The notes under the pieces are model-generated. The model was given only the letters and a program-made list of their open reading frames with translations. It was not told the origin of the DNA and searched no databases. A stretch of DNA of 64,000 nucleotides from an uncultured Candidatus Saccharibacteria bacterium (lineage in GTDB: Bacteria; Patescibacteriota; Minisyncoccia; Phycocordibacterales; UBA9973), in contig CAZWJU010000002.1 in NCBI GenBank assembly GCA_964634365.1, forward strand, positions 167,150 through 231,149. Reading direction: 5' to 3'. How positions within the stretch are numbered: position 1 is the stretch's first letter; every line of letters starts with the position of its first letter. The translations under genes were made by a program, and so were the position numbers. This document shows positions 4,059-64,000 of this stretch, piece after piece.

Positions 4059-4253
4059 GTCGGGGTGCCGGGTGAGCCGTGTGAGGGAACCCTGTGGGTG
4101 GACGGCGCAAGACCTTTTGAGATATCTTTACGAATATTTGAAGTAAAGTATCCAAAAGGTGTACAGGTTCTGTAAGAACTCGAACCCAGAGTCGCCTCTA
4201 TAATGATCCTCGAATACCGTTTATATACCTGGAGGTTGTTCTTAAAAGTTTTG
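4059..4253 (-). repeat. tRNA-Pro trailer element: degenerate direct copy of tRNA-Pro 3' half (aggcgactctgggttcgagttc) plus exact 14-nt copy of the tRNA 3' end (gtcggggtgccggg at 4059-4072), with a 70% GC segment in between
   Basis: Direct sequence comparison with tRNA-Pro at 4254-4326; spurious 114-aa ORF 4049..4393 overlies it. Confidence 0.6.
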
Positions 4254-4326
4254 TCGGGGTGCCGGGATTCGAACCCGGAGTCGCCTGTTCCCAAAACAGG
4301 AATGTTAGCCGTTACACTACACCCCG
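4254..4326 (-). tRNA. tRNA-Pro (anticodon TGG), no encoded CCA
   Basis: Reverse complement folds as cggggtg/caccccg acceptor, anticodon stem cctgt/acagg with loop tttggga, T-arm ccggg-ttcgaat-cccgg; 73 nt. Confidence 0.8.
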
Positions 4327-4418
4327 ACAAAACTTTCAAAATACATAACTTACACAAAACTAGCTTGTAGGGCTCAGTATAGCCGAGATACATATAATCT
4401 TCAAGTTTTTTATAAATT

Positions 4419-4595
4419 GTGCGGGATAGGAGAATCGGTCACAAATAATTTTTATTACATAAAATTTTCGCGACCCCGACTCAGCGACAAGCACTCGCTT
4501 CGCTCGTCTTGTATACCGCCTCCGTCTTTCGATTCCCCTACCGCACTAAAACACAAAAGCCCGAACACTAACATGTCCGAACTTTGTGTTTTATG
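4419..4595 (-). repeat. tRNA-Gly(GCC) trailer element: hairpin, inverted tRNA-3'-like fragment (gtctttcgattcccctaccgcac on plus strand at 4520-4545), GAGTCGGGGTCGC core (plus strand 4470-4484 as reverse complement), ending in a 19-nt direct copy of the tRNA 3' end (4419-4437)
   Basis: gtgcgggataggagaatcg occurs at 4419-4437 and again as the genuine tRNA 3' end at 4596-4614. Confidence 0.6.
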
Positions 4596-4666
4596 TGCGG
4601 GATAGGAGAATCGAACTCCTGTCTCATCCTTGGCAAGGACGTGTTCTACCACTAAACCAATCCCGC
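4596..4666 (-). tRNA. tRNA-Gly (anticodon GCC), no encoded CCA
   Basis: Reverse complement: gcgggat acceptor, anticodon loop ttgccaa, T-arm ggagttcgattctcc, 3' atcccgc + discriminator A. Confidence 0.75.
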
Positions 4667-5992: not shown

Positions 5993-6117
5993 GTGCATCC
6001 GGAGGGATTCGAATATTACATATTCAGGTATTTTTCGCTTTTGTTGCACAAAAGATCGAAAAATCTTTCGAATACCCCCCCCCGCAAGCAAAGAAGTTTG
6101 CTTGCTCGTATGCACCA
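5993..6117 (-). pseudogene. Interrupted tRNA-like locus: 3' end shares ccggagggattcgaa with the neighbouring tRNA-Arg; T-loop appears split by a ~62-nt insertion with duplicated tattcgaa, preceded by a run of 9 G and a gcaagca/tgcttgc stem
   Basis: Reverse complement ...gcggggggggg tattcgaa agattttt...atgtaata ttcgaatccctccggatgcac; acceptor pairs gcatacg/cggatgc with one mismatch. Either an intron-containing tRNA or a decayed duplicate. Confidence 0.3.
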
Positions 6118-6120
6118 ATG

Positions 6121-6192
6121 TGCACCCGGAGGGATTCGAACCCCCAACAACGGTTCCGAAGACCGGTATGATATCCATTTCACTACGGGTGC
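6121..6192 (-). tRNA. tRNA-Arg (anticodon TCG read from loop cttcgga), no encoded CCA
   Basis: Reverse complement gcacccg-ta-gtga..tcat-a-ccggt-cttcgga-accgt-tgtt-ggggg-ttcgaat-ccctc-cgggtgc-a; 72 nt; one 27-43 mismatch. Confidence 0.6.
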
Positions 6193-6270: not shown

Positions 6271-6341
6271 GCGGGATTAGTTAAATGGTATAACTTCAGT
6301 TTTCCAAACTGAAATCAAGGGTTCGATTCCCTTATCCCGCA
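6271..6341 (+). tRNA. tRNA-Gly (anticodon TCC; alternative register would give CCA), no encoded CCA
   Basis: gcgggat-ta-gtta-aatggta-taac-t-tcagt-tttccaa-actga-aatc-aaggg-ttcgatt-ccctt-atcccgc-a; shares acceptor stem with tRNA-Gly(GCC). Confidence 0.65.
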
Positions 6342-6470
6342 CAAATAATTTTATAGGGATAGTGAGCAAACTGCTTTGCTCACGGAAGGGAATCGAAAGA
6401 CTTTTCCATACAAGCGAAGCGAGACGGAAAAGTACCTGGCTATGTAATAGCCGATTCCCTTATCCCGCAC
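6342..6470 (+). repeat. tRNA-Gly(TCC) trailer element: inverted partial copy of the tRNA 3' end with embedded hairpin (gtgagcaaaCTGCtttgctcac), GCGAAGCGAG motif, ending with a 20-nt direct copy of the tRNA 3' end (6451-6470) 10 nt upstream of the cca start
   Basis: ccgattcccttatcccgcac at 6451-6470 versus tRNA 3' end ttcgattcccttatcccgcac at 6321-6341; gggaatcgaaagac and atacaagcgaagcgag shared with the Gly(GCC) trailer. Confidence 0.6.
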
Positions 6471-6480
6471 AAAATGCTCT

Positions 6481-46930: not shown

Positions 46931-47003
46931 CCTCCCGTAGCTCAGTCGGTAGAGCAGCTCCCTTTTAAGGAGAGGGTCGTAGGTTCGATTCCTACCGGGA
47001 GGA
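46931..47003 (+). tRNA. tRNA-Lys (anticodon TTT), no encoded CCA
   Basis: cctcccg-ta-gctc-agtcggta-gagc-a-gctcc-cttttaa-ggaga-gggtc-gtagg-ttcgatt-cctac-cgggagg-a. Confidence 0.7.
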
Positions 47004-47180
47004 CAAGGTCGAAAAAGTGGACTGCTCCACTTTTGAGTACACTTGTCCTAGACGGAAACATGTTTCGTTAGCAGACGAAACAGTTGAGTCGGGGTCGCAG
47101 AAAAATACGAGCGGCGGCGAGTATTTTATCTGTGACGACACATTCACTCTTAAATAAGGAAAGATTCCTACCAAGATAAT
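47004..47180 (+). repeat. tRNA-Lys trailer element: hairpin aaaagtggaCTGCtccactttt, core GAGTCGGGGTCGC (47086-47098) ...ACGAGCGGCGGCGAGTA..TGTGACGACA, ending with a 10-nt copy of the tRNA 3' region (gattcctacc, 47163-47172)
   Basis: Aligned by eye with the element after tRNA-Arg(GCG) (53146-53300) and after tRNA-Gly(GCC). Confidence 0.55.
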
Positions 47181-53145: not shown

Positions 53146-53420
53146 CATATAAGAAAAAGACTGGACTGCTCCAGCCTTTTTCTTATATGTGACGGGCGCA
53201 GTGATGTTTTATTAGAGAACAAAACCACGAGCCGGGGTCGAGAAATTTTGCGAGTGGCGACGAGTAAAATATTCGTGACCACAAGGTGGTATAATGAGCA
53301 GACTTAGTAACTTGTGACCACATTAAATCTCTATGTGACGACAAGAAATTGTTTGTAGCCACACTACTAAAAGTCGCGATAAATTTCCATCAGGAAATTT
53401 ACTTGTGATCATACCTAAAA
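53146..53420 (+). repeat. tRNA-Arg trailer element expanded into an iteron-like array: 16-bp-stem hairpin with loop actggaCTGCtccagc (53146-53193), core GAGCCGGGGTCG (53229-53240)...GCGAGTGGCGACGAGTA, then 5-6 copies of (T)TGTGAC(N)ACA-like sites
   Basis: Sites read at 53180(tatgtgacggg), 53271(ttcgtgaccaca), 53311(cttgtgaccaca), 53332(tatgtgacgaca), 53356(ttgtagccaca), 53401(cttgtgatcata); followed by an AT-rich stretch to 53610. Confidence 0.55.
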
Positions 53421-62753: not shown

Positions 62754-63761
62754 TTATTCAGAAATTTTTTGCAGAAGCATTGTTGAATTATTCATAATAT
62801 ACATATTGTAACGTTCGGTTTTTAGTAGTTCAGAGACAGATTTTACCCAAGCGGATTTTCTGACTTCGAATTTTTCTGCTCTATCGAACATCTCGTGTCC
62901 ATCTCTTTTAAAATCTAGAAGAAATAATGGGTGGATTCTAAGTATTCCATTTACAGCTAGTAGATGATCTATGTTTTTGAACATATTTTCTATATCTTTT
63001 GCTGTTTCAAGATACATAGGTACAGACCATGTCGCCCATATCTCGTCAGCTTTTTCTATTCCAAAATTTTTTAATTCTTCACTTTCTGCTTCGAGGACAA
63101 TAGAGCGGTAATTTTTTCTTTGATTTTTGTCTTTATCTTCAAATTTTATAAATGAATCAATATTTACAATAGAAGATGGTTTTATGTCAGATTCTAAAAT
63201 CAGGTCGTTTATGGAATCCCCACCCCCGAGTAAAATAATCTTTTTGTTATCGAGGATTTTTCTCAAAAGTTCTTTTCTGTGTTCTTTGCTTAAACAATCT
63301 AAATCAAACAAGCTTTCAATCAACGGCGGTTTTTTACCTGGAACTTTTTTTGAAAAATCTCTATTGATTTCTGTTCTATCAAAATATTCTTCTCGATTTT
63401 GAATTTTATCTAGATCGTCTATCGGATTAGACATTTGATCTATAGACTGATTTAAGTGTCTCAATTCCTGATTTAAAAGAAGCACGGGCATTCTTTCTGG
63501 TGTTCTAGATTCTATTTTTTTAACTTCCTCCCAAATCAATGGCTCTATGATATCCCAATCAGCTACTAGCTCCTTCTCGTCTTTTCCGCTCAGATTTATC
63601 TTACTGAAAAGCACGCTAGAAGAAATATTTTCGACCACTCTATACAAATACATCTCAGAATTTTCATAAGGGAGTGATGTTATATTTTTGGACCACCAAT
63701 AATCCTTGTTTTCTGGTTTGGGTGTTTTATTTTTTGGGGTATCTTTGCCGAATTCATTCAT
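62754..63761 (-). CDS. Hypothetical protein, possible Rossmann-fold (ILLGGGDS) enzyme
   Basis: 335-aa ORF; GGGD motif reminiscent of spermidine-synthase-like folds, not conclusive. Confidence 0.35.
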   Translation of the reverse strand: MNEFGKDTPKNKTPKPENKDYWWSKNITSLPYENSEMYLYRVVENISSSVLFSKINLSGKDEKELVADWDIIEPLIWEEVKKIESRTPERMPVLLLNQELRHLNQSIDQMSNPIDDLDKIQNREEYFDRTEINRDFSKKVPGKKPPLIESLFDLDCLSKEHRKELLRKILDNKKIILLGGGDSINDLILESDIKPSSIVNIDSFIKFEDKDKNQRKNYRSIVLEAESEELKNFGIEKADEIWATWSVPMYLETAKDIENMFKNIDHLLAVNGILRIHPLFLLDFKRDGHEMFDRAEKFEVRKSAWVKSVSELLKTERYNMYIMNNSTMLLQKISE

Positions 63762-63820
63762 AATAGTATTTTTATCATACTATATTGTAATAGTCCCGTC
63801 ATTTTGCTATTATGCCCTTG

Positions 63821-64000
63821 CATATACGTAAGTATATTGGAGGCGTGGCTGAGTGGAATAAATATAAACTGCTTTATATTTATTCCGAAGGAGGACAACC
63901 ACTTAGCCACGCTTCCCAAAGGGCGACAATACGTAAGTATATTGGAGGCGTGGCTGAGTGGAATAAATATAAACTGCTTTATATTTATTCCGAAGGAGGA
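63821..64000. repeat. Tandem direct repeat (period ~104 nt, at least 1.7 copies, truncated by window end); each unit contains nested inverted repeats GGAGGCGTGGCTGAGTGG / CCACTTAGCCACGCTTCC around a perfect palindrome AATAAATATAAA-CTGC-TTTATATTTATT
   Basis: 63821-63897 is identical to 63925-64000 over at least 76 nt. Confidence 0.6.

Follow-up and report, generated by a model that had tools for sequence, protein, structure and literature searches.

The flanks of transfer RNA (tRNA) genes are usually regarded as simple. Spacers within tRNA precursors are known to hold small RNAs or regulatory elements, a typical example being 3'ETS-leuZ of E. coli, and the small RNAs of such external transcribed spacers (ETS) act as sponges in trans. 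Small genomes tolerate nested palindromes of about 100 nucleotides (nt) inside their genes, those for RNA included, and open reading frames (ORFs) stay intact, as in the Rickettsia palindromic elements, Correia elements, repetitive extragenic palindromic (REP) sequences, and miniature inverted-repeat transposable elements (MITEs). Nanoarchaeota and algae possess split or permuted tRNA genes, in which a 5' fragment is encoded apart and joined via a complementary RNA segment, and integration within tRNA genes reportedly follows sublocation rules, said to go back to Williams in 2002. A synthetic riboswitch for ribonuclease P (RNase P) governs the 5' maturation of a tRNA by hiding or freeing its leader (PMC7897497). 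Here, we analyze an exact tandem repeat at the end of a 64,000-nt stretch (the window) of an uncultured Candidatus Saccharibacteria bacterium (contig CAZWJU010000002.1, positions 167,150 to 231,149 of the forward strand, assembly GCA_964634365.1). Judged from its sequence, the repeat is a tandemly duplicated, tRNA-Ser-derived structured leader belonging to a new family.

The Repeat Unit and Its Relation to tRNA-Ser

A repeat search of the window showed that positions 63929-64000 exactly repeat 63824-63895, that is, 72 nt with a start-to-start period of 105, which cannot be chance. In the final 177 bases, 1.7 copies of the 105-nt unit are visible, with unit 1 (63824-63928, + strand) complete and unit 2 (63929-64000, + strand) cut after its first 72 nt by the window end; Tandem Repeats Finder is blind to the repeat because only 1.7 copies are visible. 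The first-pass annotation had reported at least 76 nt duplicated 104 apart from 63821; the exact tandem repeat is borne out, and its length, period, and start are revised to the values above. Each unit begins with a 15-nt leader copy, ATACGTAAGTATATT (63824-63838), followed by the 5' arm S, GGAGGCGTGGCTGAGTGG (63839-63856), the P3 hairpin (63857-63884; invariant tip AAA-CUGC-UUU, loop 63869-63872), a P4-like segment, CCGAAGGAGGA (63885-63895), the antisense arm S', CAACCACTTAGCCACGCTTCC (63896-63916), and a 12-nt tail, CAAAGGGCGACA (63917-63928), which joins the unit to the next leader copy and is kept as CGAAGGGCGACA in the related loci L002 and L019 (loci in relatives and metagenomes are designated by L numbers); all of these lie on the + strand. 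S and S' form the two strands of an outer stem (63839-63856 versus 63899-63916; 18 nt, 16 Watson-Crick pairs and two G.T), within which lies a perfect 14-bp palindrome (63855-63868 versus 63873-63886) with a CTGC loop at 63869-63872; the outer inverted repeats and inner palindrome proposed earlier are thus both present. The + strand of the unit has a folding energy of -44.5 kcal/mol (z = -8.0 versus dinucleotide shuffles), compared with -35.9 kcal/mol (z = -5.5) for the - strand, whose fold is weaker because the two wobble pairs form on the + strand only. The unit length equals 35 codons, and three of the six frames are stop-free across 63824-63928; these open frames are reminiscent of palindromic elements that tolerate in-frame insertion. 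A protein-coding repeat was considered and rejected, none of the three translated open frames having a match among 5.8 billion proteins.

The nature of the arms, which the first-pass annotation did not recognize, becomes apparent from comparison with relatives. The outer 5' arm is an exact copy of the first 18 nt of tRNA-Ser(UGA) as found in L019, L003, L002, and L004, and the preceding 15 nt correspond to the leader of this tRNA, the same 15 nt standing directly 5' of the real tRNA-Ser in L019. S' is complementary to tRNA-Ser nt 1-21, including two G.U pairs. The match of the unit to tRNA-Ser is limited to nt 1-18, and neither ARAGORN nor the Rfam tRNA model RF00005, which find seven tRNAs elsewhere in the window, detects a tRNA in 63821-64000. 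No chance match to the 18-nt arm is expected in 64 kb, and no further copy with up to three mismatches exists in the window outside the two units.

In close relatives (Candidatus Nomurabacteria), the gene order is promoter, zero or one unit, tRNA-Ser(UGA), and ruvX. L019, a MEGAHIT contig obtained by a search for ruvX homologues that yielded no ruvX of the window's own genome, is 98% identical to the window across 760 nt and carries promoter, one unit differing from that of the window by 1 nt, leader, tRNA-Ser(UGA), and ruvX. The complete 705-kb genome CP064973.1 (L002), in which the neighboring protein is 81% identical, has one diverged unit and then tRNA-Ser. L003 (neighboring protein 84% identical) lacks a unit and has a plain tRNA-Ser(UGA), beginning with the same 18 nt, then ruvX; 5' of its tRNA-Ser stands a near-identical version of the unit's first 15 nt with a 3-nt insertion, ATACATATTAAGTATATT. 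L004 (neighboring protein 50% identical) also has no unit. The leader together with tRNA nt 1-18 constitutes a direct repeat of 33 nt in L019 and 30 nt in L002. That the 5' arm and leader coincide with the start of tRNA-Ser at the same locus in relatives argues that the repeat flanks a tRNA-Ser(UGA) gene on its 5' side; this gene should lie just past 64000, with ruvX next. The array was earlier thought to run past the window: unit 2 is indeed clipped and, containing the P3 hairpin, is therefore a second unit rather than the tRNA gene, but a long continuation is not expected: in all likelihood, the tRNA gene closes the array within one or a few units.

Upstream of unit 1 and outside the repeat is a promoter-like site (63785-63813, + strand; TTGTAA-17 nt-TATTAT with a TG-extended -10). 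The stretch spanning its -10 hexamer, TTTTGCTATTATGCCC, is conserved 5' of tRNA-Ser in L002, L003, and L019, and its counterpart in L004, TTTTTGCTATTATGCCC, has one extra T. GCCCTT follows the -10 box directly (63814-63819) and recurs inverted (AAGGGC) at 63920-63925 in the unit tail beside the antisense arm; the inverted copy seemingly once took in promoter-proximal DNA without the present leader, although the match may be chance. The gene adjoining the promoter-like site (62754-63761, - strand) encodes a 335-aa protein without a Pfam domain and with homologues in Candidatus Nomurabacteria. Window genes upstream of the repeat encode a hypothetical protein, SIMPL, a cytidylyltransferase, CoaE, and TrmB; those downstream of the locus in relatives are tRNA-Ser, ruvX, a tRNA-binding protein, and pilM.

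An Undescribed Family of Structured Elements 5' of tRNA-Ser

Scanning metagenomes for a duplicated tRNA 5' 15-mer, with the copies 90-120 nt apart, yielded 11 loci, each with a structured unit directly 5' of a real tRNA-Ser with anticodon UGA, CGA, or GCU. Six distinct sequences entered the covariation alignment (window/L019, L002, L007=L008, L010, L011, and L016). They have a common architecture comprising P1 (GGAGG with CYUCC), P2 (CGUGGCU with AGCCACG), and a P3 hairpin with an invariant RAA-CUGC-UUY tip, while a P4 hairpin is present in most of them and a GCAA hairpin is optional. In this alignment, 96.9% of cells are paired, versus 33-46% when partners are slid, and compensatory changes on both sides occur in eight pairs, all of them in helices 3 and 4, which make up the P3 hairpin and extend it at its base; none of 500 shuffles matched the observed pairing and covariation values. 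In the long outer stem, the variable paired positions show only G-C to G-U changes, at three positions and via C to U on the 3' strand; at two more, one sequence apiece has an unpaired cell. The covariance model built from the family (R1) scores unit 1 at 93.3 bits on the + strand and 28.2 bits on the - strand, and unit 2 at 50.5 bits with its 3' end missing at the window edge. The one-strand G-U changes and the strand bias of R1 argue that the fold is, most simply, selected on the tRNA strand, as RNA. The unit is, by these shared features, a member of a predicted, undescribed structured-RNA family located directly 5' of tRNA-Ser genes in Patescibacteria, and of the possibilities first raised for the repeat, that of a small structured RNA fits its stable, covarying + strand fold.

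Rfam 15 holds no family matching the window unit, a check that had been called for at the outset; the best hit is a microRNA (miRNA) hairpin model (E = 0.71, 17 bits versus an 84-bit cut-off), and the units of L010, L011, L016, and L019 have no match at E <= 1. Across the window edge, the tRNA trailers, and four related loci, gathering and E-value thresholds return only tRNAs and chance miRNA-like hairpins. R1, run on 195 kb (the window and the loci), finds no members beyond its training set except a weak match to the L009 unit. The exact 22-mer of the window unit has no match in the genome, metagenome, or viral contig collections; a gapped pattern (5' arm ... CACGCTTCC) has none in genome contigs, and the two-copy pattern has none in viral contigs. 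In the literature on tRNA-like or leader elements in Patescibacteria, no description of this element was found. No conserved protein partner accompanies the units, the neighbors varying by lineage (ruvX, trxB-like, DEAD-box helicase).

Some loci show additional features. In L014 (reverse strand, 879-1512) and also in L015, four copies of the tRNA-Ser 5' end stand 5' of one tRNA-Ser(UGA), and some of the L014 copies are pseudo-tRNA reaching nt 45, broken by small palindromes of the GTCCTCC-GAAG-GGAGGAC type, to which the window sequence CCGAAGGAGGACAACCAC is similar. Comparison with L014/L015 and with the P4 hairpins of L002, L007, L010, and L011 suggests that the P4-like segment, a small CC/GG hairpin, is a remnant of a palindrome of this type. 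A large serine recombinase ORF (L007 2-1156, + strand; Pfam Recombinase and Zn_ribbon_recom), in a region also found in L008, ends within 10 nt of the 3' end of a tRNA-Ser that has a 5'-side unit, which suggests a mobile element integrated at this tRNA-Ser.

A Possible Bistable Leader of Pre-tRNA-Ser

The best-supported idea is that the unit may play a cis role in tRNA-Ser maturation. When the whole precursor (unit, leader, and tRNA) is folded, with L019 representing the window, S' in the minimum free energy (MFE) structure forms 21 bp with the genuine 5' end of the tRNA, whose 3' acceptor strand is paired in turn with the S arm of the unit. This swapped fold is the precursor MFE in all six CUGC-family loci and lies 6-14 kcal/mol below the sum of the separate folds. 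In five of the six lineages (L019, L002, L007, L010, and L011), pairing of S' with the tRNA 5' end is 4.5-9.7 kcal/mol better than pairing with its own arm, the unit's 5' arm either lacking UUG or carrying a bulged A. In loci of other architectures (L006, L012, L013, and L015), the antisense arm does not capture the tRNA 5' end in the precursor MFE. The CUGC family therefore displays two mutually exclusive pairings of one segment throughout, the arrangement that characterizes a cis-regulatory RNA switch, here as a prediction only.

On this basis, a mechanism can be outlined. The single promoter would transcribe units and tRNA as one precursor; that the promoter-like site is unrepeated and the leader alone duplicated argues for such a single transcript. 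The unit would first fold on itself via the 18-bp outer stem, hiding the antisense arm. Alternatively, this arm could pair over 21 bp with the genuine tRNA 5' end, whose place in the acceptor stem would be taken by the decoy 5' copy, so that the leader would set the share of precursor folding into RNase P-cleavable tRNA-Ser. Each unit recreates the leader/+1 context, so RNase P probably excises the units too. As the unit should close first during transcription and leave the tRNA free, a bistable leader offers the best explanation. We give an even chance to the view that the units are such a co-transcribed leader acting on the folding and RNase P processing of pre-tRNA-Ser. We know of no natural precedent for a leader carrying both a decoy copy and an antisense copy of its tRNA's 5' end. 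A kissing contact between the loop CUGC and a trailer GCAG was also considered and dropped, as it comprises only 4 nt and is not conserved in L007.

Similar Modules at Other tRNA Genes

The Ser repeat is, as far as sequence comparison goes, one case of a feature that is general to tRNA loci of these bacteria and has gone undescribed. In five of the seven window tRNAs, the 3' end (10-22 nt, from the T loop on) recurs as an exact direct copy 110-190 nt downstream, with an antisense arm between the tRNA 3' end and its distal copy, a mirror image of the Ser unit. These are tRNA-Pro (4253-4326, - strand), tRNA-Gly(GCC) (4595-4666, - strand), tRNA-Arg(UCG) (6120-6192, - strand), tRNA-Gly(UCC) (6271-6342, + strand), and the tRNA at 46931-47004 (+ strand), with 3'-end copies at 4059-4072, 4418-4437, 5999-6013, 6452-6473, and 47163-47172. 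In the Arg(UCG) module, a matching change is found in the antisense arm and the distal copy. For the tRNA at 46931-47004, ARAGORN calls tRNA-Stop with anticodon UUA, a call that works only with an internal C.A mismatch and with the D and anticodon stems separated by two bases. In the canonical register, the loop reads CUUUUAA, which points to tRNA-Lys(UUU); TAA terminates 21 of 29 long ORFs, which makes a UAA suppressor unlikely.

Hairpin cassettes recur among these modules. Perfect hairpins of at least 9 bp with a CTGC loop are found outside the repeat only at 6362-6383, right after tRNA-Gly(UCC), and at 47013-47034, right after the tRNA at 46931-47004, in agreement with the first-pass annotation, which had likened the repeat's tetraloop to that of tRNA-trailer hairpins. 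CUGC-tipped hairpins without a U tract stand directly 3' of tRNA-Gly(UCC), the tRNA at 46931, and tRNA-Arg(GCG) (53147-53188); the last of these is conserved in L002, where its outer 7 bp are fully compensated, while an ordinary terminator takes its place in L004. The trailers of tRNA-Gly(UCC) (6343-6476, + strand) and tRNA-Arg(UCG) (5995-6119, - strand) are homologous modules sharing the tip AAACUNCUUU, then UCGAAAGAYUUUUC...GAAAARUACCUG, and then a GUA-loop hairpin, with ends adapted to each tRNA. The same trailer core occurs within a pseudo-tRNA-Arg(UCU) copy in L004, 5' of tRNA-Arg(UCU). A second cassette, GAG-NCGGGGUCG-(covarying A/U helix with a CGAGCGGCGGCGAG-type loop)-UGUGAC, which has no Rfam match, is located in the trailers of three different window tRNAs (about 4440-4500, - strand; 47080-47140, + strand; 53225-53285, + strand) as well as in two other genomes (the L002 Arg-GCG trailer and L011 1122-1209).

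In relatives, 5' modules starting with a copy of the tRNA's own 5' end are found at Leu(GAG), Arg(UCU), Arg(GCG), and Glu tRNAs, including tRNA-Leu(GAG) in L002 and L004, tRNA-Arg(GCG) in L012, and tRNA-Glu in L016. The Leu module keeps the anticodon stem with the anticodon loop swapped for a tetraloop, and it is conserved between genomes whose neighbor proteins are only 50% identical. A search of these other-tRNA modules against Rfam found none present there. It is a speculative and rather doubtful extension that Patescibacteria possess a natural strand-swap switch for tRNA maturation that serves most tRNAs (5' modules at Ser, Leu, Arg, and Glu; mirrored 3' modules at Gly, Pro, Arg, and Lys), in which a decoy tRNA end with its antisense beside the gene would render the precursor bistable and a factor reading the invariant CUGC hairpin would set the outcome.

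Copy Number and Origin of the Units

The number of units per locus is zero in L003 and L004, one in L002 and L019, and at least two in the window. The window and L002 units have arms, tail (CRAAGGGCGACA), and leader in common and differ almost wholly in the interior, which argues that the unit is old. Tandem copies would arise from unequal recombination between the 33-nt direct repeats, a route that would also delete units cleanly, as in L003, which probably lost its unit in this way. Hairpin cassettes may also move: two compensatory double changes set the window P3 apart from its counterpart in the unrelated L016, whereas the P3 of the syntenic L002 is unlike it, which hints at exchange of cassettes. 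With regard to layout, L019 has S at the unit start, the inverted S' 42 nt downstream of S, and then S again as tRNA nt 1-18; in the window, the third S copy is that of unit 2 (63944-63961). Direct, inverted, and direct copies in close succession are what defines a small inverted triplication, and this layout is the product expected of small inverted triplication or template switching (PMC13334657, PMC8794818). Logan contig L001, recovered through the neighboring protein, is identical to the window and stops inside the 33-nt repeat (L001 1-20 = window 63834-63853). Modules of this kind fragment short-read assemblies, and copy number may be hidden.

Alternative Explanations

Several considerations count against a switching leader. 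Transcription, RNase P cleavage, and any switch are inferred. Co-transcriptional folding should favor the self-hairpin, and MFE models, which ignore tRNA tertiary structure and modification, underrate the folded, modified tRNA, so that the swapped fold may never form in cells. Only six distinct sequences lie behind the covariation. The scan demanded an identical 15-mer, and 5' identity is therefore built into the scanned loci; only L002 and L019 were found independently, via synteny. The absence of units from L003 and L004 indicates that they are dispensable, and the 3'-side modules and common hairpin cassettes at other tRNAs fit a selfish or mutational origin equally. Finally, an assembler looping through the repeat could have produced the copy number seen in the window, given the 33-nt length of that repeat, the L001 break, and the single unit in L019; since the unit was found independently in L002, L019, and metagenomes, such an artefact could touch copy number only.

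The main rival to a co-transcribed bistable leader, less probable in our judgment but a serious possibility, is that the unit is a selfish or neutral by-product without positive function. On this view, the tRNA 5' end underwent small inverted triplication or partial tandem duplication and later took in small mobile palindromic hairpin cassettes; the hairpin is kept closed only since an exposed antisense arm would disturb tRNA folding, and tandem copies are recombination noise. The varying presence of units across close relatives speaks for this rival, as do the direct/inverted/direct layout found also beside other tRNAs, at the 3' end of five of the seven in the window and, in relatives, at the 5' end of those for Leu, Arg, and Glu, the inner cassettes common to modules of different tRNAs, the palindrome-laden pseudo-tRNA-Ser copies of L014, the closer resemblance of the window P3 to unrelated L016 than to syntenic L002, and the documented ability of template switching and small inverted triplication to make such layouts (PMC8794818, PMC13334657). 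It is harder to reconcile with the RAA-CUGC-UUY tip and P4 features having been kept across deep divergence in genomes of about 0.7 Mb able to delete the unit by repeat recombination, or with an antisense arm that keeps 2-3 nt pairing only with the real tRNA; nor has any mobilizing enzyme been identified, or any dispersed arm copy in the 64 kb. The earlier suggestion of a satellite is not supported, as relatives carry only zero or one unit and the window shows 1.7 copies, nor is that of tandem MITEs, as no other arm copy exists in the window and the arms are the end of the adjacent tRNA. A simple local duplication of just two copies had been named as the outcome that would refute the first-pass proposal; for its tandem aspect this is near the truth, while the unit itself is a conserved element rather than a trivial duplication.

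Less probable still is a stand-alone tRNA-like small RNA, an approximately 80-nt hairpin freed by RNase P and 3' trimming that acts in trans via the P3/P4 loops, for example by protein binding, with tandem copies raising the dose and the tRNA-derived arms serving only as a processing handle. Its very stable fold (-44.5 kcal/mol, z = -8), the leader and +1 context shared with the tRNA, the loop sequence invariant in the family and also present in tRNA trailers, and the tandem amplification in the window and L014 would all suit this explanation, which we nevertheless consider unlikely, as the neighboring protein is not conserved (ruvX, trxB-like, and DEAD-box helicase contexts) and the better match of the arm to the tRNA than to its own partner is left unexplained. 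A DNA-level element without an RNA role, either the attachment-site (att) scar of an integrative element or a single-stranded DNA hairpin for a recombinase or transposase, is improbable: tRNA-end direct repeats flanking an insert are a hallmark of elements integrated in tRNA genes (PMC9897764), and in L007 a gene for a large serine recombinase adjoins the 3' end of tRNA-Ser, but here the 5' end and leader are duplicated rather than the 3' end, the insert has only 72 nt and no recombinase, an inverted tRNA-end copy is foreign to att sites, viral contigs yield no matches, and both the covariation and the one-strand G.U-compatible substitutions indicate that the tRNA strand folds as a single strand, as RNA. 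We attach hardly any weight to the remaining options, namely an atypical array of clustered regularly interspaced short palindromic repeats (CRISPR), a protein-coding 35-aa repeat, or a pure assembly artefact. The period of 35 codons with half of the frames open, and the capacity of short-read assemblers to loop through a 33-nt repeat, lend them something; against them stand the absence of a variable spacer and of cas genes in relatives, the absence of a start signal, and the independent occurrence of the unit in L002, L019, and metagenomes.

Significance and Comparison with Known Systems

A streamlined genome of about 0.7 Mb devotes 100-200 nt to modules of tRNA-end copies and antisense copies at most tRNA genes. 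Should these modules act on precursor folding, they would be the first natural case in which a decoy/antisense pair controls RNase P processing in cis; a selfish nature would make them a new class of palindromic elements that target tRNAs in uncultivated bacteria. In both cases, assemblies break at them, spurious ORFs result, and tRNA and CRISPR annotation can be misled.

The repeat resembles a CRISPR array in its regular spacing, partly palindromic character, and position at a contig edge. Judged against repeats of about 23-47 nt with unique spacers of similar length, however, it has a period of 105 and no unique spacers, and the array in relatives ends in a tRNA gene without cas genes near the locus, a check that had also been proposed to exclude an atypical array. 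The entire visible unit (72 nt) is identical, which leaves no spacer and confirms the original judgment that this is not a CRISPR array. Selfish palindromic repeats have their own terminal repeats and many dispersed copies, whereas the unit has tRNA-specific arms and no dispersed copy in 64 kb. Unlike split or permuted tRNA genes, the locus in relatives has a complete tRNA-Ser gene downstream, so that joining is unneeded, and we know of no splicing endonuclease from these bacteria. Like att duplications of elements in tRNA genes (PMC9897764), the unit has a direct repeat of a tRNA end on both sides of an insert (33 nt in L019, 30 nt in L002) and an intact tRNA gene alongside; in att duplications, the tRNA 3' part is repeated and the insert carries, or once carried, an integrase, whereas here the 5' end and leader are duplicated around a 72-nt insert consisting only of hairpins, with an inverted tRNA end and a covarying RNA fold. 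Template-switch hairpins and small inverted triplications (PMC8794818, PMC13334657) share with the unit a direct/inverted/direct segment and a perfect RNA hairpin beside its source, but these are mutational mechanisms and leave the conserved inner hairpins and cross-lineage retention of units unexplained. Compared with RNAs of the 3'ETS-leuZ type, the unit as proposed would likewise be a functional RNA segment co-transcribed with a tRNA; those RNAs act as sponges in trans, whereas the unit would act in cis, on the maturation of the tRNA-Ser from which its arms derive.

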